From a virus: 64,000 nucleotides of DNA. Below the pieces are notes generated by a model. The model had not been told where the DNA came from. It saw only the letters and a list, made by a program, of their open reading frames with translations, and did no database searches. Below, piece after piece: positions 57-23,307 of this stretch; within the stretch, counting starts at the first letter, position 1; each line of letters opens with the position of its first letter. Position numbers and translations under genes: made by a program. The stretch is from IMG/VR virus record IMGVR_UViG_3300037859_000002, positions 32,001-96,000 of that record, one strand, 5' to 3'.

Positions 57-452
57 TCATACCACTTTCACGTGCCTGTAGGCCCGCTCCAACCACTCCT
101 CGGCTGCGGTCAGCAGATGATGGCGGTAGCGGTAACTGCCCACGGCATCCCGAGCCTGCTGGCCGGTCGTGCCGTTGAGCATGATCAGGCTGGTGGGCGG
201 GTAGTCCGCGTAGGGTCGGGCCAGCAGCTCGCGCCACCCGACGTGAAACCAGATGATCGCCCCCGAAAGCCGATCGCCGAGCGCGCGCTCCACCAGGCGG
301 AGGGGCAGCGGCATCAGCGTCCGGATGTTCGTCTCGGGCAGGTCGACCAACAGGATGTCGGTGCTGGTGTCGATCATGCGCTGGATCGCGACCAGGAAGT
401 GGGCGGGATCGTCGTCGGATCCCAGACGCACGGTCATCAGTTCAACGTTCAT
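57..452 (-). CDS. hypothetical protein (early cluster 1)
   Basis: ORF MNVELMTVRL...; start moved to the ATG at 452, which follows a GGAG RBS lying inside hammerhead 458-532. Confidence 0.7.
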   Translation of the reverse strand: MNVELMTVRLGSDDDPAHFLVAIQRMIDTSTDILLVDLPETNIRTLMPLPLRLVERALGDRLSGAIIWFHVGWRELLARPYADYPPTSLIMLNGTTGQQARDAVGSYRYRHHLLTAAEEWLERAYRHVKVV

Positions 453-457
453 GGTGT

Positions 458-532
458 CTCCACTGATCACGCGCCCCGTGTGGGCGCGAGGCACGACCCA
501 CCCGGATGGGGGTGGGCCGGCCTTTCGTGGAG
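458..532 (-). ncRNA. type II hammerhead ribozyme-like element, G3-C8 core variant
   Basis: minus strand: CTCCAC GAA A GGC[hairpin]GCC T C GCGCCC ACACG GGGCGC GTGATCA GTGGAG; three stems, CUC triplet, core GUGAUCA. Confidence 0.75.
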
Positions 533-533
533 C

Positions 534-1703
534 CTAGGCCTTGGCCATCAGGTCGCCCGCGCGGCGTTCGAAGGCCACGCGTTCGTCCTGATAAGGGATG
601 GTCCGCGCGTGCGCGGTCATGCCCTGCACGACGTCCCAGATAGACGTCATCGGGTGCCCCTCCTCGCGGAGAACGGTCTCGATGATGTCTTTGGTGGTCG
701 GCTTCGGCAGGCCGAGCTTCTTGTGCAGAAACTCGAAACGCTGATCATCGTCCTTGGCGACAACCGTTGCCTTGGCGTCGATGACCTTGCTGGTCACCGC
801 GTTCGCCGCGGTGTGGGCAAAGCTCTCGATCTGGGGCTGTACCTCGTGGATGAACCGGTCGGGTGCACCGCTCGTGTGACGGATAGTGATCGACTTGTGG
901 TTCTCGGTGCCCCAAAGGCAGCGGTTCTGACAGACGGCGCGCAGATACATCGTCTGGATGTTCAGCGCTCGGCTTCCGGTCTCCGAATTGGAGACGATGA
1001 TGCCCGGGAACAGCAGGTCCGGCTGTCCGTCGGGGAGTTTGCCGACCTCGATCGGGAACTGATCGCGGCACAGGAAGATGAAGACATCGCGGTCCGAGGC
1101 GTACAGTGTGGTCGTCGCCTTGGTGACATCGACGTTGGGGTTGTAGGTCATCCGGCCCCAGTCGATGACGCCCGGCACCTTCCAGCTTTCGTCGAGACGC
1201 TCGTTGATGGCGCGGGCCACATCCAGGTCGAGGATGCGGCCATAGCCCGGGCTGGTGGCGGCTCGCAGCTGATCCGGCCCGCCCGCCTGATCTTCCTGCC
1301 AGAAGAGCTTCAGCACCTCGGCCGGGCTTTTGACCAGGCCATGCTGAAGACAGAGCCCGGAAAGAAAGGCCGGGATCTTGCGCAGGTAGGCGGCGGGCGA
1401 CTGGGTCCAGGTGCAGAGCTGCCCGAAAGCCCAGTGCGTCATCTGCATCTGGGCTCCACCGTCACGCTCGAGCAGGAGCGTATGGTTGTCGTCCGGGTTG
1501 GCGCTGACGCGCAGCTTCTTCGACTCGAAGGTGTTGGTTCGCGACAGGTCGGTCCGGTCGTGGAGGCTCGAGATGAGCGCATCCATCGACAGGAATTTCT
1601 GGTCATCAGGTCGTGAGAACCATTGCTGGCTCACGCTGGTGTTCAGGCTGCCGCGGGAGGCGGTGACAGCACGTACCCCAACGAGTGTGGTGTCAGTGTT
1701 CAT
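534..1703 (-). CDS. DUF932-family protein
   Basis: motifs LYASDRDVFIFL and NSETGSRAL...YLRAVCQNRCLWG...IRHTSGA typical of DUF932; AAGGAG RBS before the ATG at 1703. Confidence 0.75.
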   Translation of the reverse strand: MNTDTTLVGVRAVTASRGSLNTSVSQQWFSRPDDQKFLSMDALISSLHDRTDLSRTNTFESKKLRVSANPDDNHTLLLERDGGAQMQMTHWAFGQLCTWTQSPAAYLRKIPAFLSGLCLQHGLVKSPAEVLKLFWQEDQAGGPDQLRAATSPGYGRILDLDVARAINERLDESWKVPGVIDWGRMTYNPNVDVTKATTTLYASDRDVFIFLCRDQFPIEVGKLPDGQPDLLFPGIIVSNSETGSRALNIQTMYLRAVCQNRCLWGTENHKSITIRHTSGAPDRFIHEVQPQIESFAHTAANAVTSKVIDAKATVVAKDDDQRFEFLHKKLGLPKPTTKDIIETVLREEGHPMTSIWDVVQGMTAHARTIPYQDERVAFERRAGDLMAKA

Positions 1704-2992: not shown

Positions 2993-3024
2993 TGCCCCCA
3001 GGGCAAGGTCCCCGGGGGCATGGA

Positions 3025-3582
3025 TCAGCGGGCCGGGATCTTGCCCTTGTGGGCCTCGACCCGTCGGCGGATCGTTGACGCAAGCTCCGCGTACTCGCGG
3101 TTCACGGTCGCGGTCGCGTCGTTCAGCACCTGGTCGTCGGTCGGGCACTGGATGCTCGCCGTCGCCGGGTTCTGCTCGAGATACTGCGCCAGGGACACCC
3201 GCTGCTCATAGGCCATGCAGGTCATGCTGGCCCAGATGAAGAGCCGGCCCAGCCCCTCAGGGAGCGGGGCCTCCAAGCCTGGTGCATACAGGGCGCAGCA
3301 GATCTCCGCGGGGGCGCAGATCCAGGGCCGGAACCCGTAAACGATTTCCAGCCGCTGCGCGCGCACCTGTTTCGGGATGAAGGGCGGAATGTCCTTCTCC
3401 CAGCCGCCGCCGGGCTGGATGATCACGGGCCCGGTGACGTAGTGCTGATCGGCCTTGCTGAGGCCGGCGATGCCCATGGCTTCGTTGAGCTGCAACAGGA
3501 AGGCGGCGCTCATGCCCATGTGGGCCATGGCGCTCTGCAGTCGCAGGACGTCCATCGACATCGGCGTCTGCTGTGGTTTCAT
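3025..3582 (-). CDS. hypothetical protein
   Basis: ORF MKPQQTPMSM...; GAGGA RBS formed by the hammerhead core. Confidence 0.7.
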   Translation of the reverse strand: MKPQQTPMSMDVLRLQSAMAHMGMSAAFLLQLNEAMGIAGLSKADQHYVTGPVIIQPGGGWEKDIPPFIPKQVRAQRLEIVYGFRPWICAPAEICCALYAPGLEAPLPEGLGRLFIWASMTCMAYEQRVSLAQYLEQNPATASIQCPTDDQVLNDATATVNREYAELASTIRRRVEAHKGKIPAR

Positions 3583-3587
3583 CGGAG

Positions 3588-3659
3588 TGATCCTCATCAG
3601 CGCCGGCGGATCGCCGGCCGAGCTCGCGGCCGCACGCGGCGGCCGGAGCTTTCGGATCA
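3588..3659 (-). ncRNA. type II hammerhead ribozyme
   Basis: TGATCC GAA A GCTC[hairpin]GAGC T C G GCCGGCG ATC CGCCGGC G CTGATGA GGATCA; G.G mismatch at 1.1/2.1. Confidence 0.8.
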
Positions 3660-4031
3660 GTCTTCAACAGGCTCTTCGAGCAGTCGGTCCATCAGAGCGA
3701 GCTGCCGGGCCTTGGTCAGTTCGGAGGTGCGGTCATTTTCGATGTAGAACAAGGTCCGTGCCGCGGCCTCACTGATGCCAAAGAATACGGCCAGGGCCGT
3801 GTCCGTAGCGGTCCACCCATGAAGGGTAAGGAGCCGCTGCGGGGACAGCTTCAGTCCTTCGGCTTGAAGGACCGGATCCATGCCGCCGTGGCCGGCGATG
3901 CAAGCCACGGTGCCGCAAACGGATTGCCACTTGTTCATGTCGATCAACATGGCCGGCGTCTCGGCAATGATCTCGCGGAGGCGGGCGAGACGCTGCCGCG
4001 GCCTCAGGCTTGGAATGGTTCCACTTCCCAT
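3657..4031 (-). CDS. small CG(T/S)xxCxxGH-motif protein, paralog 2
   Basis: PRQRLARLREII...CGTVACIAGHGGMDPVLQAEGL. Confidence 0.8.
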   Translation of the reverse strand: MGSGTIPSLRPRQRLARLREIIAETPAMLIDMNKWQSVCGTVACIAGHGGMDPVLQAEGLKLSPQRLLTLHGWTATDTALAVFFGISEAAARTLFYIENDRTSELTKARQLALMDRLLEEPVED

Positions 4032-4035
4032 CGGG

Positions 4036-4107
4036 TGATCCTCTTCATGGGGATGATTCCCCGACCGTTCCCCCTGAGTCAAAGCCCAGGGGGCCGGTTT
4101 CGGATCA
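4036..4107 (-). ncRNA. type II hammerhead-like element, C3A variant
   Basis: TGATCC GAA A CCG[hairpin]CGG T C GGGGA ATCA TCCCC ATGAAGA GGATCA. Confidence 0.7.
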
Positions 4108-4596
4108 GTAGCCATTGCCCACTTCGGTGACGTGGGCGTGCCGCACGTCGTTGGGGCTGAGCTCGACCGCCGCGCGGTCGCGCAGGTGGTCGAGCATATC
4201 GGCCCAGACGCGGCTGGACGGATCGTCCATGCCGGCCTCTGCCAGGTCGGCGGCCTTGACCCGGTCGGGAGCCTCGATCGTGGTGGTGAAGCGCAGGACC
4301 GTGGTGAGCGTGACATCGATGGTCACCTCGTGCCTGGTCTTTGTCGTCCCCGCCACGATCTGCGCGCACAGTGCCTCGAAATCGAGGCGGTCGAGCATCT
4401 CGTCCCCAGCCTGGTAGGCGCGAACGATGAGGACCCTGTTGTCGGACAGCAGGGTCGTCGGGACCGCGCCGGTCTTGGCCCTGAGATAGGCCGCGACCGG
4501 CGCCTCGGTTCCGTCGCTCATGCGCGCCAGGTAGGTCTTGAGGTCCATCGCCGACGGGCAGTTGCTCTCGTCGACGACGGTGACGTCGTAGTTCAT
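4105..4596 (-). CDS. hypothetical protein
   Basis: 163-aa ORF with GAGGAG RBS. Confidence 0.75.
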   Translation of the reverse strand: MNYDVTVVDESNCPSAMDLKTYLARMSDGTEAPVAAYLRAKTGAVPTTLLSDNRVLIVRAYQAGDEMLDRLDFEALCAQIVAGTTKTRHEVTIDVTLTTVLRFTTTIEAPDRVKAADLAEAGMDDPSSRVWADMLDHLRDRAAVELSPNDVRHAHVTEVGNGY

Positions 4597-4600
4597 GGGA

Positions 4601-4669
4601 TGAGCTCCTCTGGTCCGTTATTGGACGAGGCGGGCGCCGCCCATCGGGCGACGGCGCGCCTTTCGCTCA
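4601..4669 (-). ncRNA. type II hammerhead-like element, U4A variant
   Basis: TGAGC GAA A GGCG[hairpin]CGCC T C GTCC AATAAC GGAC CAGAGGA GCTCA. Confidence 0.7.
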
Positions 4670-5371
4670 CTCCTCTCGACCATGGTGCAGCTCGTGCTGC
4701 AGCAGGTCGCGATGGTGCAGGTACTCCGAGTGGTGGGCCTCGAGGATTGCGTCGCTGGCGACGAGCCTGATGTTGTTGCCCAGGCCGGCGCGCTGATCCA
4801 GCAGCAGCTGCTGCAGGCAGGCGAGCAGGTCGAAATCGACGTGCTCGCTCTGCTTCGACGCCCGGGACCAGGCGGTCATGCGCGCCTTTGCCTCCTCGGC
4901 GGAGGAGGCGCGCACAAACACCGGGTAGGTGAACTCGGGGAGCTGCAGGGTGGCGGTGACCGCGTAGAGGCGTTCACCCCCTCTGAGCTGGCCGAGCAGG
5001 CCCTCGGTGGCCCTGTTTTGCGGCACGGCCTCGAAGGGCCGGTCGCCGTGCTCGGGGTGATCGTCGATCGCGCTCATGTTTGCGATCGAGGCGATCGGGT
5101 CGGGGTTGTCGTCGTCGCCTTCCCTGGATGTCCAGTCGGTACCCCGGAGCATACGCCAAACCTGGCGGAAGCTGGGGTCTGCCATGGTGTCTGGCGCGAC
5201 GCTCATTTGTCGGCCGTCATGGGTGGCGACGAGGACCGGGTCCCCGGTGGCGGTGGCGTTGATCACCGCGAGCTTCTCGCGCGCGGTGGCCGCCAGTGCG
5301 ATCGCCTTGTCGAGATCGACGTACTCGAAATCATCGGGCCCGTCCTCGAAGGCGATGGTGCAGAGTTCCAT
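4667..5371 (-). CDS. hypothetical protein (acidic)
   Basis: 234-aa ORF with GAGGA RBS. Confidence 0.75.
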   Translation of the reverse strand: MELCTIAFEDGPDDFEYVDLDKAIALAATAREKLAVINATATGDPVLVATHDGRQMSVAPDTMADPSFRQVWRMLRGTDWTSREGDDDNPDPIASIANMSAIDDHPEHGDRPFEAVPQNRATEGLLGQLRGGERLYAVTATLQLPEFTYPVFVRASSAEEAKARMTAWSRASKQSEHVDFDLLACLQQLLLDQRAGLGNNIRLVASDAILEAHHSEYLHHRDLLQHELHHGREE

Positions 5372-5376
5372 GCGGT

Positions 5377-5444
5377 CCTCTTGTCAATGAGCGGGATTGC
5401 TCATGAGCGCCAGGCCCCGCATTGGGGGCCTGGGGCTTTCGAGG
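5377..5444 (-). ncRNA. type II hammerhead-like element, U3-A8 variant
   Basis: CCTC GAA A GC[hairpin]GC T C A TGAGC AATCCC GCTCA TTGACAA GAGG; same AATCCC loop and extra base as element 17194-17262. Confidence 0.65.
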
Positions 5445-5858
5445 GTCAGCGTGGCTTGGGCGCCTTGCGTGGCTGGCGCCTGGGCGCCGAGCGACGAAGG
5501 AGCGGGGGCCAGCCCGGGCTCATGGTCCGGGATGGCTGGGCGAGCCGCGTGGCCAGCCGGATGGGCTGGCTCAGTCGCAGCGTCGGTGGTCGGTCTGGGT
5601 CCATGGGTGACCTCATCGGCGGCGCGGGATTGCGCCGGAGCGCCTGGGCGCTTTCGGTCACATCTCTGATATGGGGATTGGCCCGCTCGGGTGCAACCGC
5701 GATTCCATGGTTGTGGAATCAGTGGTGGAGGCGTAGGGTCTGCGTCTCGCCCAAAGAGGCGACGGCCCCGGTTTGAACGCCCGGGGCCGTCCATATCTCG
5801 GGCCGGAGCGACATCCGGCGGCGAGCGCGCTGGCCCAGTAGACGCTGGGCTTGGCCCA

Positions 5859-5887
5859 TACATATTGCGTGTGGACCGGGCGTGCAA
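5859..5887 (-). promoter_or_regulatory. putative sigma70-type promoter for leftward cluster 1
   Basis: TTGCAC-N17-TATGTA on the minus strand in an AT-richer divergent gap. Confidence 0.5.
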
Positions 5888-5920
5888 GTGAAAATCTGGT
5901 ATCAGGCCGCGTCTACGGCT

Positions 5921-5934
5921 CACATTTAGATGTG
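5921..5934. promoter_or_regulatory. operator-like palindrome CACAT-N4-ATGTG
   Basis: CACATTTAGATGTG next to the RBS of the initiator gene; recurs across the window. Confidence 0.75.
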
Positions 5935-5944
5935 AGGTGCTGCC

Positions 5945-6991
5945 GTGAACGTCTCGTACATCAATTTCGTCGCCACGGGCTGGGCCTGGGCGCAGCCGAC
6001 CGCGAATGCTGGGGCCAAGCTGCTGCTGCTGGCCCTGGCCGGCCACGCTGACCCGTGGGGGAGCGCCCGCCCGGCGCTGCCCCGGTTGCAGGCGCTGACC
6101 GGGCTGTCGCGCTCCGGTCTGTTCAAGGCCATGGCCGAACTCGAAACCCTGGGCCTGATCAAGAAGCGCTCGGGCGGCGGGGTCGTCAATGAATACATTC
6201 TCAAGTGGGATGGGGAGCCCGGCCCGTTCGTGGTGCTGACCGAGCCTGCGGCACCCGTCCCCCCAGTGGACGGGGGGGTCCGCCCAGTGGACGGGCCTCC
6301 CCAGAGTGAACGGGTCCACTCGGTGGACTCACCCCGTCCACTCGGTGGACTCCACCCGTCCACTCGGTGGACTCAACCCGTCCACTCGGTGGACTCCACC
6401 CGTCCACCCAGTGCACCCGAAGATATTAGAGAAGAGATAAGGGAAGAGATAAGGGAAGAGATTAGGGAAGAGAACAACAGCGCGCGTGCGCGCGCGACCA
6501 CTCTCGCGGGGGCGCCCGAACCCGCCGCCGGTCCCGCGGTGACACCCCCTGCCGCTGAGGAGGTCTGCGACGCGACCAGTACCCCGGAAAAACCGCGAAG
6601 GTCAAAGATTCCTAGTCGCGTGCCTTCGGGCGACCTGCCGGCCGAATGGCTCAGCGCAGCCAACGCCGGTCGCGCCAAGCTCGGCCTCCCCGAAATCGGC
6701 GCCCGCGAGGCCATCGCCCGATGGCTCAACTTCCAGGCCTTCTGGGAGGGCGTCACCGGCCCCAAGGGCCTGAAGGTCGACTGGCGTCGCTGCTGGCTCG
6801 AGGGTGCGCGCAACCCCAAGGCCGACCACCACTACGAGGATTTCGCCCAGCCCGACGCTGAGGAGCCGCCGGCGCCGCGGACCGACCACCAGGCGGACGC
6901 CGAGTTCCTGACCGATCCTGAATTCGGGGCCCGCAACCGCGCCAAGCTCGCGCTGCTCGAATCCCTGGTCGCCGGGAGGTCCCGCCTGTGA
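5945..6991 (+). CDS. phage replication initiator (N-terminal HTH, internal ori)
   Basis: N-terminal AKLLLLALAGHAD...PALPRLQALTGLSRSGL HTH; internal iterons; C-terminal FQAFW...DWRRCW; directly upstream of the primase-helicase. Confidence 0.8.
   Translation: MNVSYINFVATGWAWAQPTANAGAKLLLLALAGHADPWGSARPALPRLQALTGLSRSGLFKAMAELETLGLIKKRSGGGVVNEYILKWDGEPGPFVVLTEPAAPVPPVDGGVRPVDGPPQSERVHSVDSPRPLGGLHPSTRWTQPVHSVDSTRPPSAPEDIREEIREEIREEIREENNSARARATTLAGAPEPAAGPAVTPPAAEEVCDATSTPEKPRRSKIPSRVPSGDLPAEWLSAANAGRAKLGLPEIGAREAIARWLNFQAFWEGVTGPKGLKVDWRRCWLEGARNPKADHHYEDFAQPDAEEPPAPRTDHQADAEFLTDPEFGARNRAKLALLESLVAGRSRL
6314..6476 (+). repeat. origin of replication: four 22-bp iterons (GTCCACTCGGTGGACTC core) plus a purine-rich 12-bp repeat tract
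   Basis: repeats at 6314, 6336, 6358, 6380 and a partial copy at 6402; then GAAGAGAT(A/T)AGG-type repeats; lambda-O-like arrangement. Confidence 0.75.
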
Positions 6992-8853
6992 CGGCACTCG
7001 ACCTGCACGCGGCCCTCGATCGCGAGGGCATCCGGATCCCCGCGACCACGCCGGGCAAGACCTTCGATGCGCTGTGCCCCCGCTGCAACGGCGGTCGCGC
7101 CCGGGAACGGAACTTCCGGGTCACGATCGACGACGACGGCAAGGGCGCCGTCTGGCTCTGCAACCGGGCGAACAACTGCGGTTGGACCGACAGCGTCCGC
7201 ACCGGCCCCCGGGATCCGAGTGCGCCGCGCGCGCGCAAGGACCGGGCCCCGCCGGTAAAGCCCGAACCGATCCCGCCCGAGCAGCAGGATCGGCGCCTGC
7301 CGCTCTACGCCTGGTGGGCCAGGCGCCGGATCTCGGCCGAAACCGTGGACGCCCTGGGCGTGTTCACGACGTCCATGCGGTTGCCGCGTTTCGATGCCGA
7401 GGGGCGCCCCGTGCTGGATGACCAGGGCAAGCCCGTCTGGCAGGACCAGGAGGCCATGGTGTTCCCCTACGTGCACCACGGCGAGGTCGTGAACCACAAA
7501 TACCGCTGGTCGCCCAAGAAATTCCGCCAGGATCGACACAGCCGGCGCACGCTCTTCAACGCCGACAGCCTCGAGGCCGACGATCTGGGGATCATCGTCG
7601 AGGGTGAGGCCGATGTGCTGGCCCTGTGGGAGGCCGGGTACCGTCAGGTCGTCTCCCTGCCCGATGGGGCGCCCCCCCGGGTCAGCGACACCTATGACCC
7701 GGAGAATGACGATGACGACCGGTATGAGGCGCTGCGGACCGAGGAGCGCTTCCAGCGTCTGAAGCGCATCGTCATCGCCGTCGATACCGACGACGCGGGC
7801 CGGGCGCACGCCGAGGAGATCGCGCGCCGCATGGGCAAGGAGCGCTGCTGGCTCGTGGAGTGGCCCCGCAAGGACGGGGGCGACGTGCTGCGCGAGCTTG
7901 GGCCCGAGGCCGTGCGTGCCGCGGTCGAGGGCGCGCGACCCTATCCGATGCCGGGCATCCTCGATGGGCGGGCCCTGGGCGAGCGCGTGGCCGCCGAGCG
8001 CCAGGGCCAGCGCGATACCGGCTATGCCTGCGGGATCGACGATCTGGATGGCCTGTTCCGGTTCTCGCGCGAGGAGGGCACCTTCGCGGTCGTCACGGGC
8101 GTGCCCGGCTACGGCAAGACCGTGACCACGATCGCCTACTCCGTGTTGTTGGCCGAGCAGGCTGATGCGCGGGGCGAGCCCTGGCACACGCTGATCTGCT
8201 CGCCCGAGATGCGGGCCGTCGATCTGGTGAAGAACATCGTCGCGGCCAAGGCGCGCCAGCCCTTCTACGATGGCAAGAGCGGCCCGGGCATTGCCCCCGA
8301 GGACCTGCCGGCGCTGATGGACTGGGTCAACGCGCACTACACGTTCCTGGAGCCTGACGATGCGGCCGATGATCCGACGCTCGACTGGATCATCGAGTGT
8401 GTGCGCCTGTCGCATCGCCGGAACCGGACCAGGCTGGCGATCATCGATCCCTGGAACGAGATCGAGATCGGCTACCCGCCCGACAGGAGGATGACCAACG
8501 ACGAGTGGATTGCGAAGCAGTTGCAGCGGATCCGCAAGCTCGTGGTCGAGCTCGCCTGTTCGGTCGTGGTGGTCGCCCACCCGAAGAAGATCGAGCGCGA
8601 GAAGAAGGGGGGTAAGCTCAGGGTGCCGACCGGCTACGACATCGCCTACTCGGCGGGCTGGAACAACAAGCCCCAACTGGGGATCACCGTGCACCGGGCG
8701 GAGCACGACAAGACCGACGAGCTGGAGTTTCACGTCTGGAAGGCCAGGCAGGGTCATCTGTCGAAGCGCGACAAGGTGGTCGTGCGGTTCAGCCCGGTGA
8801 CCAAGCGGTTGCTGCCCAAGATGACTCCGGTCGCCTATGGCGCGGTCGGATAA
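6988..8853 (+). CDS. primase-helicase (T7 gp4/Twinkle-like: Zn finger, TOPRIM, SF4 helicase)
   Basis: CPRC...CNRANNC; VEGEADVLAL; DTDDAG; Walker A GVPGYGKT; IIDPWN; VAHPKK. Confidence 0.9.
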   Translation: MTALDLHAALDREGIRIPATTPGKTFDALCPRCNGGRARERNFRVTIDDDGKGAVWLCNRANNCGWTDSVRTGPRDPSAPRARKDRAPPVKPEPIPPEQQDRRLPLYAWWARRRISAETVDALGVFTTSMRLPRFDAEGRPVLDDQGKPVWQDQEAMVFPYVHHGEVVNHKYRWSPKKFRQDRHSRRTLFNADSLEADDLGIIVEGEADVLALWEAGYRQVVSLPDGAPPRVSDTYDPENDDDDRYEALRTEERFQRLKRIVIAVDTDDAGRAHAEEIARRMGKERCWLVEWPRKDGGDVLRELGPEAVRAAVEGARPYPMPGILDGRALGERVAAERQGQRDTGYACGIDDLDGLFRFSREEGTFAVVTGVPGYGKTVTTIAYSVLLAEQADARGEPWHTLICSPEMRAVDLVKNIVAAKARQPFYDGKSGPGIAPEDLPALMDWVNAHYTFLEPDDAADDPTLDWIIECVRLSHRRNRTRLAIIDPWNEIEIGYPPDRRMTNDEWIAKQLQRIRKLVVELACSVVVVAHPKKIEREKKGGKLRVPTGYDIAYSAGWNNKPQLGITVHRAEHDKTDELEFHVWKARQGHLSKRDKVVVRFSPVTKRLLPKMTPVAYGAVG

Positions 8854-8912
8854 CACACACAGATGTCTTTTCTGGCCTTGGCGCCACATTCAAGTGTGTC
8901 TATCATGCGCAG

Positions 8913-16827: not shown

Positions 16828-17184
16828 GGCGGGTCGGTCAGGATGGTAGTCGAGCGCGCGCTTCAGCCGTGCGACCAGCGTACGTGGCTTGCTCTCGAGG
16901 CCGAACAGCGACTCGGACACCTGCTTTGTGATGCCAAAGAACACGGGTCCGATGGACTCGCTGCGGACTTCCTGTTCCCCGACAAAGGGGAACAACATGC
17001 GCCCGTCGTCGAACAGGTGGCGCAGCGTCAGTCCCTCGTTCTGCATCTCGGGCGTCATGGCCGCGTGGCCGATGATGCACCCGGGGCTGCCACAGAAGTC
17101 GGTCCAGCGGGTCATCACCAGCTGATCGGGCGGAATGCTCGCCGCCAGGTCGGTGACGAAGGCCAGCCTCTCGTAGGGTGTCAT
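16825..17184 (-). CDS. small CG(T/S)xxCxxGH-motif protein, paralog 3
   Basis: MTPYERLAFV...CGSPGCIIGHAAMTPEMQNEGL. Confidence 0.8.
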   Translation of the reverse strand: MTPYERLAFVTDLAASIPPDQLVMTRWTDFCGSPGCIIGHAAMTPEMQNEGLTLRHLFDDGRMLFPFVGEQEVRSESIGPVFFGITKQVSESLFGLESKPRTLVARLKRALDYHPDRPA

Positions 17185-17193
17185 GCGCGTGGT

Positions 17194-17262
17194 TCCTCTT
17201 CAGGCCCGCGGGATTGCGGGCAGAGCGGCCCCGCCGCGGTGCGACGGGGTGCTTTCGGATCA
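17194..17262 (-). ncRNA. type II hammerhead ribozyme
   Basis: TGATCC GAA A GC[hairpin]GC T C T GCCCGC AATCCC GCGGGC CTGAAGA GGA. Confidence 0.8.
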
Positions 17263-17463
17263 GTCTTCGGGAGGCGCCCTCACCACGGGATACGGGTAGC
17301 CCAGCGCGGTCATGACCCGTTCGTGGATCTCGCACGCGTGGTCCCGGTCTTCCTCGTTCCAGGTGGGGCGGCCCTGCCGGCGGCGCCGGCGGTGGGCCGC
17401 GTCGGTGCCCGCCGCGTGGGCGAGCCCGAGGGCCTCCTGGTAGCTGTCAGCGCGGATGGGCAT
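17260..17463 (-). CDS. small hypothetical protein
   Basis: YQEALGLAHAAGTDAAHRRRRRQGRPTWNEEDRDHAC. Confidence 0.65.
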   Translation of the reverse strand: MPIRADSYQEALGLAHAAGTDAAHRRRRRQGRPTWNEEDRDHACEIHERVMTALGYPYPVVRAPPED

Positions 17464-17752
17464 CGACGCCCTCGCCGTTGACGGCGTGGCCCACCAGGGT
17501 GCCGTAGCGGCGCCTGGTCGCGTGGGCCATCATGGCCAGGGCTTCGCGCACGCGGCGGGCATCGGCCGCGATCGACAGGAGCTCCGTTTCGGGCACCTGT
17601 TCGACCCCCTCGGGAAAGCGTTGCTGGATCTGCTCGGCGATGTCCTGCACGAGCCTGCAGCAGGCTTTCATCTGGGTGGCCACGGCGTTGCCCGAGGGCA
17701 TGGAGTCGAGCGCGAGCGTGAGCCAGTCGTCGGGCAGTTGGTGTTGAGGCAT
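17447..17752 (-). CDS. hypothetical protein (helical)
   Basis: 101-aa ORF after hammerhead 17758-17830. Confidence 0.7.
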   Translation of the reverse strand: MPQHQLPDDWLTLALDSMPSGNAVATQMKACCRLVQDIAEQIQQRFPEGVEQVPETELLSIAADARRVREALAMMAHATRRRYGTLVGHAVNGEGVDAHPR

Positions 17753-17757
17753 CTGGT

Positions 17758-17830
17758 TGATCCTCTTCAGTGCCGGCGATGGTGCCGGCCGAGCGTCCCC
17801 GCCGCGATGCGACGGGGCGCTTTCGGATCA
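17758..17830 (-). ncRNA. type II hammerhead ribozyme
   Basis: TGATCC GAA A GCG[hairpin]CGC T C G GCCGGC ACCATC GCCGGC A CTGAAGA GGATCA. Confidence 0.8.
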
Positions 17831-18208
17831 GGTTGTGACCGGCTCTTTCAAAAGCCGGTCGATCAGGGCCAGCTGCCGGTCCTTGGTCTGGTGCCGGGGC
17901 CGGGCATCATCGGAATAGAACAGCACGGTCCCGGCGTCGTTGCTGATGCCGAAGAACTCGGACAGGCCGATGTTGCCGACGGGGTTGCCGTTGACGGTCG
18001 GCGAAGGCCAGGGGCCATCGGTCAGCTCCAGGCCCTCGGCCTGGAGGACCGGATCCTGGGCACCGTGGCCCGCGATGCACGCGGTGGTGCCGCACTGTGA
18101 AACCCAGGCGCTCATGTGGATTGCTTGGGCCGGTGTGTTGGCGATGACCTTGCGCAGGCGGGCCAGCCGCTGTCGCGGCGTCAGGCCAACGGGTTCCGGG
18201 TCTGTCAT
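17828..18208 (-). CDS. small CG(T/S)xxCxxGH-motif protein, paralog 4
   Basis: TPRQRLARLRKVI...CGTTACIAGHGAQDPVLQAEGL...RQLALIDRLLKEPV. Confidence 0.8.
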   Translation of the reverse strand: MTDPEPVGLTPRQRLARLRKVIANTPAQAIHMSAWVSQCGTTACIAGHGAQDPVLQAEGLELTDGPWPSPTVNGNPVGNIGLSEFFGISNDAGTVLFYSDDARPRHQTKDRQLALIDRLLKEPVTT

Positions 18209-18214
18209 TGGTTT

Positions 18215-18284
18215 GCTCCTCTTCAGGCCCGCGGGATTGCGGGCGACCGCCCCGCCCCGGTGTGGGGCGGGGGGTTTCGTCAGC
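18215..18284 (-). ncRNA. type II hammerhead ribozyme (canonical, GUC)
   Basis: GCTGAC GAA A CC[hairpin]GG T C GCCCGC AATCCC GCGGGC CTGAAGA GGAGC. Confidence 0.8.
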
Positions 18285-18842: not shown

Positions 18843-18854
18843 CGGAGTGGGTCC

Positions 18855-18919
18855 TCTCGTTTCGCGCCCACGAACCGGCGGGCGCTCGTCGGCGCCTCTC
18901 ACATGAGAGGCGAACGAGA
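18855..18919 (-). ncRNA. type III hammerhead-like element, U4C variant
   Basis: TCTCGT T CGCCTCTCA TG TGAGAGGCG CCGACGA GCGCCCG..TGGGCGC GAA ACGAGA. Confidence 0.75.
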
Positions 18920-18949
18920 TACACTTAAATGTGGTGAGCCGGGAGTCAA
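18920..18949 (-). promoter_or_regulatory. putative promoter (TTGACT -35) with operator-like CACATTTAAGTGTA
   Basis: directly downstream of a terminator and upstream of hammerhead 18855-18919. Confidence 0.55.
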
Positions 18950-19209: not shown

Positions 19210-19227
19210 GGTATGTGCTCCTGGCCC

Positions 19228-19328
19228 CGGCTGCCTCTTCGGCACAGGATGGGGGCCCACATCGCTGTGGATGCACGCCGCGGCTCCTTCCTCGCGGGAG
19301 GGGCGCGCGCGCGCATTTCGATCAGCCG
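19228..19328 (-). ncRNA. type II hammerhead-like element, U4C variant
   Basis: CGGCTGATC GAA A TGCGCGC[..]GCGTGCA T C CACAG[..]CTGTG CCGAAGA GGCAGCCG. Confidence 0.65.
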
Positions 19329-19573: not shown

Positions 19574-19629
19574 CCCTTTCGCCGGCGGCTGGCCGGCTCG
19601 TCAGCCCCCACCAGGTGGTGGGGAAAGGG
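19574..19629 (-). ncRNA. type III hammerhead ribozyme
   Basis: CCCT T TCCCCACCA CC TGGTGGGGG CTGACGA GCCGGC CAGCC GCCGGC GAA AGGG. Confidence 0.85.
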
Positions 19630-20161: not shown

Positions 20162-20219
20162 CCCTTTCGCCGGCATGCTGGCCGGCTCATCAGTCCGCCC
20201 CATCAGGGAGCGGAAAGGG
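20162..20219 (-). ncRNA. type III hammerhead ribozyme
   Basis: CCCT T TCCGC T CCC TGAT GGG GCGGA CTGATGA GCCGGC CAGCAT GCCGGC GAA AGGG. Confidence 0.85.
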
Positions 20220-20506: not shown

Positions 20507-20561
20507 CCCTTTCGCCGCAGACTGGCGGCTCATCAGGCCCCACACGCTGTGGGGTCGAGGG
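20507..20561 (-). ncRNA. type III hammerhead ribozyme
   Basis: CCCT C GACCCCACA GCG TGTGGGGC CTGATGA GCCGC CAGTCT GCGGC GAA AGGG; near-copy of element 15921-15976. Confidence 0.85.
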
Positions 20562-20597
20562 TGGGTGCCCCCACACAGGGGGCACCCAACAGGAAGA

Positions 20598-22068: not shown

Positions 22069-22180
22069 GGCGATCAGGCCCGTTACTTTGGAAACTGTAG
22101 GTCGTCCGTTCAAATCGGACCAGCGGTCGCAAGGCTGCTGTAGCTCAGCCTGGTAGAGCAACGGTATGAAACGGACCGCC
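22069..22180 (+). ncRNA. yrlA: YrlA-like Y RNA (permuted tRNA-like domain)
   Basis: GGCG..CCGTTACTT..ACTGT AGGTC [T arm GTCCG TTCAAAT CGGAC] [acceptor-like CAGCGGTC GCAA GGCTGCTG] TA [D arm GCTC AGCCTGGTA GAGC] A ACGGT ATGA AACGG AC CGCC; order T-AS-D with ends paired. Confidence 0.7.
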
Positions 22181-22603
22181 CTAAATTCCGGCGGCAACTG
22201 CTAACCCATCCGGCCAGGGGTTGTGGCCGGGGACCGAGATGAGTGCCCCGCGAGGGGAGCCAAGCCCCCACAGGGGGCCGCCCGGTTGATCACCGGGCGC
22301 TCGGAGGAATTCAGTTCTGCGGTGGCCGGTACGAAGCGCGAGCAAAGAACCTCGTCGCCCCACGGGCAACCTTACAGTAGGGGCTGGCTACGCCCGGCAC
22401 ACGCAAGTGGGATGCCGGCAACGTCGCAAAGCCAGTTCGGCCGCCCGGGACGCCGGGGCGCTCGGCCGACGTGTTGGCCATCGCAGAAGCCAGCTGATTT
22501 GGGGTGGTGTTCTCGGCCCGCATTTCGTGGGCCAAAGCCTTGATAAAACGAGCGTATGTGCTGGTGCCCTTGAGCTGGTCTGGCCATCGCGGAAGCCTTC
22601 GGA

Positions 22604-22680
22604 TGCAGGGTAGAGCAGCCCGGTAGCTCGTCTGGCTCATAACCAGAAGGTCGCCCGTTCGAATCGGGCCTCTGCAACCA
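22604..22680 (+). tRNA. tRNA-Met (CAT), fMet-like D arm
   Basis: cloverleaf with TGCAGGG/CTCTGCA acceptor, TCTGG CT CAT AA CCAGA anticodon arm, TTCGAAT T loop and encoded CCA. Confidence 0.9.
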
Positions 22681-23232: not shown

Positions 23233-23307
23233 GCCCCGCTAGCTCAATGGCAGAGCGCCCCCTTTGTAAGGGGATGGTTGCCGGGTCGAAACCGGCGCGG
23301 GGCTCCA
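23233..23307 (+). tRNA. tRNA-Thr (TGT), slightly atypical (G54)
   Basis: GCCCCGC/GCGGGGC acceptor, GCTC/GAGC D arm, TT TGT AA loop, GTCGAAA T loop, CCA. Confidence 0.8.

Follow-up and report, generated by a model that had tools for sequence, protein, structure and literature searches.

The window analysed here is a stretch of 64,000 nucleotides (nt) that corresponds to bases 32001-96000 of the 111,211-bp IMG/VR provirus record IMGVR_UViG_3300037859_000002, a provirus of 68% GC with a completeness of 93% by CheckV. Small minus-strand genes occur in two arrays within the window, from 5700 to 1 and from 20950 to 14000 (array B), and a third array, designated locus L001, lies beyond it at genome positions 111211 to 106450. 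Hammerhead ribozymes are interspersed among these genes, with at least 17 copies of type II and about ten of types III and I across the three arrays. All genes and elements of the studied region are on the minus strand, with leftward transcription. Names beginning with w and plain coordinates refer to the window, while names beginning with g carry genome coordinates; the ten elements singled out by an earlier, sequence-only reading were labelled by their lower plus-strand coordinate, at which the RNA has its 3' end. Most array proteins were without a known family in Pfam and PHROGs searches, the only two with a match being a DUF932/phrog_1362 protein and one similar to a sliding clamp or RusA. 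A Cys/His-rich paralogous family of 120 aa is present in five copies, between ribozymes. Read by eye, the junctions of array B were either overlaps of the ATGA type or filled by a ribozyme, with the exception of the gap at 19000-18842, where a terminator-like hairpin and a promoter-like site stand ahead of the hammerhead.

Six of the named elements (w3588, w4036, w16440, w16757, w17194 and w17758) share one layout. In RNA order, each runs from TGATCC-GAAA through the stem III hairpin, U-C17 and the stem I hairpin to (C/A)UGA(A/U)GA and GGA(U/A)C(A/C). The claim that these elements start on the stop codon of the preceding gene was borne out, as the TGA begins 6 nt before GAAA in all six and closes frames of 85-234 codons, with a GC content at third codon positions (GC3) of 0.71-0.89. 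Their other end also conformed to what had been proposed, namely (C/A)TGA(A/T)GA-GGA, in which G8-A9 of the core and the adjoining GGA spell GAGGA, a Shine-Dalgarno (SD) sequence located 7-11 nt ahead of the ATG. Measured from GGA to ATG, the gaps were 8, 7, 11, 9, 9 and 8 nt, in the order given above, and no further SD-like purine run was present between GGA and ATG in the copies inspected. The other four named elements, w458, w4601, w5377 and w18215, were found by the parse to carry the same stop and SD plan on other helices, as had been suggested.

The elements were parsed with A15.1-U16.1 pairing and closure of stems III and I imposed, and 17 type II-like copies with a nearby ATG were obtained. 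All ten named elements parsed as type II, with stems III and I closed and stem II open. GAAA, the A15.1-U16.1 pair and C17 were invariant in all 17 copies, and in these constrained folds stems III and I were closed throughout, with hairpin energies of -18 to -39 kcal/mol. The G10.1-C11.1 pair was found in 16 copies (g108545 has A10.1), and the exact CUGANGA core in 11, including five of the six TGATCC copies. In a structural scan of the genome, 12 canonical type II folds were detected, every one of them on the minus, or coding, strand, whereas a reversed-sequence control gave none. The hammerhead observation is confirmed as real and beyond chance. In an eighteenth copy, g109232, the 5' half is the same and the stop lies 4-10 nt before GAAA; this copy has no ATG nearby and was left unparsed.

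The position of the stop and start codons was consistent across the set. In every parsed copy the stop lay 4-10 nt before GAAA, and the gap from position 10.3 to the ATG was 4-11 nt. The stop-to-ATG distance was 69-76 nt in 15 of the 17 copies genome-wide, giving gaps of roughly 74 bases, so that the ribozyme makes up the entire intergenic spacer. The stop had further been described as built into stem II. This held with one qualification: in w16440 and w17194 only UCC/GGA (3 bp) is contiguous and UGA falls outside the continuous helix.

Covariation was judged from pairwise comparisons only, as MAFFT alignments misplaced GAAA or the core. Between copies, identity sets in no more than 1-3 nt from the stop codon and is lost either immediately past GGAUCAAC or on reaching the ATG, and the coding sequences flanking homologous copies are unrelated. 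These boundaries indicate that the ribozyme is a portable intergenic module. Copies w16757 and g109689 (L001), for example, are identical over about 77 nt between unrelated genes. Comparison of w17758 with g108076 showed the loss of one stem II U-A pair to give UGACC/GGUCA, with both UGA and GAGG kept, and the three copies with an A3 core showed compensatory changes in stem III.

Judging from these sequences, the elements are probably type II hammerheads (some of them type III) that form the whole stop-to-start spacer between successive early genes and split the transcript as an insulator-like module. The 5' edge of the module is the upstream stop, with UGA inside or flush with the 5' strand of the open stem II, and the 3' edge is the downstream SD, to which G8-A9 and positions 10.1-10.3 contribute GAGG(A), 7-11 nt before the AUG. 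From what is known of the family, self-cleavage after C17 would cut the polycistronic transcript into single-gene mRNAs. The upstream piece would end about 35-45 nt past its stop (37-44 in the ten named copies), with the stem III hairpin and a 2',3'-cyclic phosphate, and the downstream piece would carry a 5'-OH, the stem I hairpin and then a single-stranded CUGAAGAGGAUCAAC-AUG leader. Since no helix other than stem II connects the predicted cleavage products, cleavage would free the SD permanently. The SD-bearing strand is also the last part of the module to be transcribed. Given what is known of ribosomes, one with UGA in its A site would be expected to extend over G12-A14 as well as the 5' strand of stem II, while a 30S subunit on GAGG would occupy G8, A9 and positions 10.1-10.2. 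With these two footprints, the active fold would geometrically exclude both a terminating ribosome and an SD-bound 30S subunit. In its proposed mode of action, the module is closer to an insulator of the RiboJ kind than to a tunable switch.

A number of observations weigh against this reading; they concern the ribozymes themselves, stem II and the modelled accessibility of the SD. The core deviates at position 3, 4 or 8 in six of the 17 copies, the variants being A3 (three copies), G3/C8, U3/A8, A4 and C4. The 1.1-2.1 Watson-Crick pair, which Perreault et al. (2011; PMC3088659) used as an acceptance rule, rejecting candidates without it, is lacking in eight of the 17 (G.G, G.A or unpaired). 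These include four of the six TGATCC copies (w3588, w16757, w17194 and w17758), while the pair is present in w16440, w4036, w18215 and others. RF02276 gave sub-threshold matches to 11 copies, at 31 bits for w16440 and 9-28 bits for the others, and none reached the gathering cut-off of 37 bits. A gathering-level Rfam scan of the window returned two tRNAs only, the hammerheads being visible only below the cut-off. RF02276 scores are depressed by the long GC-rich stems and the missing 3' tail. The pseudoknot usual in type II, between loop I and the 3' tail, was not evident when the sequences were inspected by eye. Loop I is often AAUC(A/C). For this sequence, UGAU in the 5' strand and GGA in the 3' strand are both conceivable partners, but by eye it covaried with neither.

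The many core variants and 1.1-2.1 mismatches, the scores below the Rfam cut-off in every copy, and the identical or near-identical modules between unrelated genes, with homology ending at gene boundaries, would also be expected if the elements were mostly decayed or inactive relics, now serving as recombination linkers or protective-hairpin punctuation in the manner of T4-type mobile regulatory cassettes. This is very unlikely, as GAAA, A15.1-U16.1 and C17 have remained invariant, and CUGANGA exact in most copies, despite diverged stems I and III with compensatory changes. In addition, G3/C8 and U3/A8 are paired swaps that keep the 3-8 pair. The invariant GAA, A15.1-U16.1 and C17, together with these paired swaps, argue for continued selection on catalysis.

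Other viral loci were surveyed with the pattern CGAAAC..GTC..CTGATGAG, which leaves stem II free beyond 10.1 and 11.1. The pattern returned 120 viral loci, in which the scanner found 164 type II folds, compared with six in reversed controls. The census set consisted of 147 unique type II elements from 91 other viral loci; Rfam confirmed 22 type II elements at the curated cut-off in 11 loci tested, with members scoring 37-69 bits. A stop closing a frame of at least 40 codons lay 4-10 nt before G12 in 89 of the 147 elements (61%), against a background of 4.4% (binomial p about 1e-80, with array members non-independent; 56 of 91 when one element was taken per locus). The stop position peaked at 5-6 nt before G12, and TAA, TAG and TGA were all used. 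A start codon was found 18-40 nt after 10.1 in 99 census elements, and within 17 nt in only 31. Thus, in most other phage type II hammerheads, the overlap with the stop is retained and a separate SD lies 18-40 nt downstream, which indicates that the conserved feature is the stop side. Overlap with the stop is a general property of phage type II hammerheads, and the placement of the SD within the core and stem II is a compact minority variant, dominant in this genome. A second instance occurs in locus L140 (59% GC), where four copies of (G)UGACC...CUGAUGA-GGU supply GAGGU, with the ATG 8-10 nt after 10.1; this is the same fused stop and SD design on a different helix. In L185, L191 and L205 the ATG lies 10 nt after 10.1, inside the pseudoknot tail.

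The position of the stop, abutting stem II in 61% of the census, could mean that the ribozyme senses termination. Ribosomes finishing the upstream gene would keep it unfolded, and it would cut mainly when that gene is untranslated, thereby uncoupling or rescuing downstream genes or triggering decay of idle RNA. The footprint expected for a ribosome at the stop codon, over the 5' strand of stem II and G12-A14, would suit such a role, and the enrichment persists at one element per locus. Stop occupancy is transient, however, and would leave a fast ribozyme time to cleave between one ribosome and the next, and selection for a short 3' untranslated region ending in a hairpin predicts the same placement on its own. 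We consider termination sensing quite unlikely. Rather improbable, too, is the idea that the open helix of type II, which has its 5' strand on the upstream stop in most phage copies and supplies the next SD with its 3' strand in compact lineages such as the present one, is a general ribosome sensor, through which terminating or initiating ribosomes gate cleavage and so set, for each transcript, the choice between coupled and separate stabilised mRNAs. If true, it would assign a definite regulatory role to the hammerheads of bacteria and phages, and would account for the prevalence of type II in phages.

Stem II varied considerably in strength. Its contiguous length over the 17 copies was 6 bp in seven, 5 bp in one, 4 bp in one, 3 bp in four, and 1 or 0 bp in four, and its contribution to folding energy (ddG) ranged from -7.0 to +5.2 kcal/mol. 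By nearest-neighbour rules, the ddG was -5.6 kcal/mol in UGAUCC/GGAUCA copies, approximately equal to that of the duplex between SD and anti-SD, and zero or positive in seven of 17 copies, in which the stem is no longer than 3 bp. The SD:anti-SD duplexes themselves were calculated at -5.8 to -8.8 kcal/mol (-1.4 for g108545, which has A10.1), and copies with a weak stem II had the stronger SDs (-8.3 vs -5.8 kcal/mol). For G8-10.3, a model that ignores the tertiary fold put the mean unpaired probability at 0.38 for the precursor, against 0.40 for the 3' product. Free folding with long flanks often lost the hammerhead fold or stem II, so the accessibility figures are weak evidence either way.

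The sequence-only reading held that the SD is occluded until cleavage, or until a terminating ribosome opens it, and that translation is thereby coupled. The anatomy of the module edges and the geometric exclusivity of the active fold favour this proposal, whereas the weak stem II, the near-equal accessibility before and after cleavage, and the separate SD elsewhere do not. As the folding models ignore tertiary structure, they weaken the occlusion switch, and no more. The switch interpretation is a reasonable hypothesis, partly supported.

The same data bear on whether the overlap might be a by-product of compaction. A type II hammerhead ends in GA-G, so that one extra G would yield a free SD, and a packed genome would put the ribozyme flush with the stop; there would then be no coupling, and cleavage, if any, would touch mRNA stability only. 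With G8, A9 and G10.1 fixed in the ribozyme, three of the four SD bases cost nothing, and cleavage makes no difference to the modelled SD accessibility, both as compaction would have it, as are the weak or absent stem II in seven of 17 copies and the separate SD in most other phage type II hammerheads. The stop peak at 5-6 nt, on the other hand, recurs over 91 unrelated loci with all three stops and is tighter than compaction alone requires. GG at 10.1-10.2 is found in 13 of the 17 copies here compared with 43 of 147 in other viral loci, and the stronger SDs of copies with a weak stem II suggest that the SD itself is under selection. Compaction without coupling is a real, if minor, possibility.

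Hammerheads between phage genes have been described before. Perreault et al. (2011; PMC3088659) found types I-III between small varied phage genes on one transcript, proposed processing to single-gene mRNAs, and observed three clusters cleaving in vitro, and the A. tumefaciens cluster cleaving in vivo within E. coli. In D. vulgaris, in vivo cleavage is likewise known for type II hammerheads located near phage genes. According to a 2019 review (PMC6765202), prophage hammerhead clusters cleave in vitro and in vivo and have been proposed to process long transcripts, the bacterial and phage role being still open. The arrays described here resemble the prophage clusters of Perreault et al. in that hammerheads lie between small phage genes, but those clusters have two or three copies each, compared with at least 17 of type II and about ten of types III and I here, and many of the present copies would fail the 1.1-2.1 rule. 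The terms 'stop codon', 'Shine-Dalgarno' and 'ribosome binding' are absent from the text of that paper (PMC3088659). A full-text literature search yielded no description of a stop or SD fusion, although subscription journals lay largely outside it and absence is unproven.

The copies share with RF02276 the topology, the core and the C17 site, and bona fide RF02276 members elsewhere also start on the upstream stop. The RF02276 consensus has a stem II of 1-4 bp, a pseudoknot between the 3' tail and loop I, and a separate, later SD, whereas the copies here have the SD and its spacer in place of the tail, long GC-rich stems I and III, and scores below 37 bits. We regard the elements as new hammerhead family members, whose compact architecture has so far been little documented.

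Two other systems provide useful comparisons. RiboJ, attributed to Lou et al. 2012, is reportedly a synthetic insulator consisting of the sTRSV hammerhead and a hairpin upstream of the ribosome-binding site (RBS). The modules are similar in having a hammerhead just upstream of the RBS, and, independently of the upstream sequence, would likewise produce an RNA with a fixed 5'-OH terminus, a hairpin at its 5' end and an RBS that is exposed. They differ in that the RBS of RiboJ is outside the ribozyme and exposed by the added hairpin, and in that RiboJ is engineered and has no stop overlap. At the coat-replicase junction of MS2, coupling relies on SD sequestration: the downstream SD pairs with the end of the upstream gene, and the ribosome opens it. 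The MS2 structure is a plain reversible hairpin, whereas the helix here belongs to a catalytic fold and its opening would be permanent on cleavage.

In the arrays a single design, a portable 74-nt module that combines stop, cleavage site and RBS, is available in about 17 natural versions. They constitute a natural series, with a stem II of 0 to 6 bp and natural core variants. Together with the 61% of the census, the modules would turn 'processing of polycistronic RNA' into a testable competition between ribosome and ribozyme, and they could serve as natural insulator parts for high-GC hosts. Because all copies fall below the Rfam cut-off, standard annotation misses such arrays.

The individual type II modules of the window, all on the minus strand, were located as follows. 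Element w3588 (3580..3659) has TGA at 3659-3657, GAAA at 3653-3650, C17 at 3620, CUGAUGA at 3600-3594, GAGGA at 3595-3591 and ATG at 3582-3580; its stem II is UGAUCC/GGAUCA, of 6 bp and -5.6 kcal/mol, its 1.1-2.1 position is a G.G mismatch, and it scored 21.6 bits against RF02276, below the cut-off. Element w4036 (4029..4107) has TGA at 4107-4105, C17 at 4063, the A3 core AUGAAGA at 4048-4042, GAGGA at 4043-4039 and ATG at 4031-4029, and its A3 core is kept in two diverged L001 copies, g107488 and g110147. The best Rfam match, w16440 (16429..16510), whose core and 1.1-2.1 pair are fully canonical, has TGA at 16510-16508, C17 at 16473, CUGAAGA at 16452-16446, GAGGA at 16447-16443 and ATG at 16431-16429. 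The corresponding features are TGA 16827-16825, C17 16790, core 16769-16763, GAGGA 16764-16760 and ATG 16750-16748 in w16757 (16748..16827); TGA 17262-17260, C17 17223, core 17203-17197, GAGGA 17198-17194 and ATG 17184-17182 in w17194 (17182..17262); and TGA 17830-17828, C17 17791, core 17770-17764, GAGGA 17765-17761 and ATG 17752-17750 in w17758 (17750..17830).

The copies with other helices were more varied. Element w18215 (18206..18282; type II) has TGA at 18282-18280, UGAC-GAAA, C17 at 18245, the core at 18226-18220, the SD GAGGAG and ATG at 18208-18206; it scored 22.7 bits with RF02276, and its stem II is 1 bp by nearest-neighbour rules. Three further modules are type II-like. In w4601 (4594..4669), with TGA at 4669-4667 and ATG at 4596-4594, stem II is UGAGC/GCUCA, the core is CAGAGGA (A4), and the SD AGAGGAG runs across the core. 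In w5377 (5369..5448), with TGA at 5448-5446 and ATG at 5371-5369, stem II is CCUC/GAGG and the core UUGACAA (U3/A8); a weak twister-sister match of 22.5 bits, below the cut-off, overlaps this element. In w458 (450..536), the stop is TAG at 536-534 and the ATG is at 452-450, with stem II (G)CUCCAC/GUGGAG, core GUGAUCA (G3/C8) and the SD, GGAG, inside the 3' strand of stem II. A short type II-like element, w5600 (5602..5660), stands at the head of the leftward operon, with GUGACC/GGUCAC, the core CCGAUGA (C4) and ATG at 5604-5602. Its TGA is perhaps no real stop, since the upstream open frame has a GC3 of only 0.68.

Two related elements on the minus strand have their SD elsewhere. A hammerhead-like element at 19210-19328 has a CCGA(A/C)GA core (C4), TGATC-GAAA on a stop codon and long stems, with a separate SD, CAGGAG, about 27 nt after position 10.1. 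At 1725-1836 there is a type I hammerhead-like element, in which the UGA of the upstream gene (1827-1825) provides U4-G5-A6 of the core CUGACGA; 15.1-16.1 is G-C rather than A-U, and a separate SD, AAGGAG, follows only far downstream.

For type III, an RBS overlapping the 3' strand of stem III had been reported, and this was found in six window copies, which end in GAAA-GGG(A), GAAA-GG or GAAA-GGCAA, 8-15 nt before the ATG. In the element at 15921..15976 (minus strand), GAAA-GGGA of the 3' strand of stem III contains AAGGGA, which resembles an SD and is separated by 10 nt from the ATG at 15910. Further type III copies are located on the same strand at 20507-20561, 20162-20219, 19574-19627, 2932-2992 and 2204-2254, and a type III hammerhead-like element near 18880 (18843-18935, minus strand) has a CCGA(A/C)GA core (C4) and ends in GAAACGAGAGG. 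An extra GC-rich hairpin precedes each type III, 6-10 nt past the upstream stop (15976-16005, 20562-20590, 2255-2277 and 2993-3020, minus strand), so that in both topologies the upstream product of cleavage would terminate in a stable hairpin. Beyond the last gene of array B, at 14000-14545 (minus strand), a type III-like element with a CUUGAAGA core is followed by about 450 nt of structured non-coding sequence with a clear intrinsic terminator near 14010. This structured sequence may be a non-coding RNA.

Searches for relatives of the arrays gave few matches. With the 120-aa family as probe, ten viral and 68 metagenome loci were recovered, with no convincing hammerheads (five scanner hits, compared with four in the control), and no related arrays were found by a genome-contig search, by tblastn of a phage collection, or with the DUF932 protein against viral contigs. 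A type III pattern search returned two unrelated contigs only. The exact design TGATCCGAAA...CTGANGAGGA gave 14 matches in viral contigs, all of which were chance occurrences in coding DNA, none folding as a hammerhead. Dense type II arrays were seen in L182, L173, L107 and L140, far denser than the clusters of two or three copies of 2011. L182:163-5185 contains nine Rfam-level type II hits in 5 kb, and L173:892-5156 about ten scanner hits in 4.3 kb; at the Rfam cut-off, L173 gave an array of three hits.

Elsewhere in the window, strictly periodic short repeats of the AGCGAGCCG / ACGGCACCG type surround an open reading frame at 9480-11630 (plus strand). An Rfam match resembling the YrlA Y RNA, with a tRNA-like domain, was found at 22076-22181 (plus strand), at 34.6 bits against a cut-off of 69. 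Two tRNA genes (22604-22677 and 23233-23304) are its neighbours, and the phage repressor and integration region is alongside.

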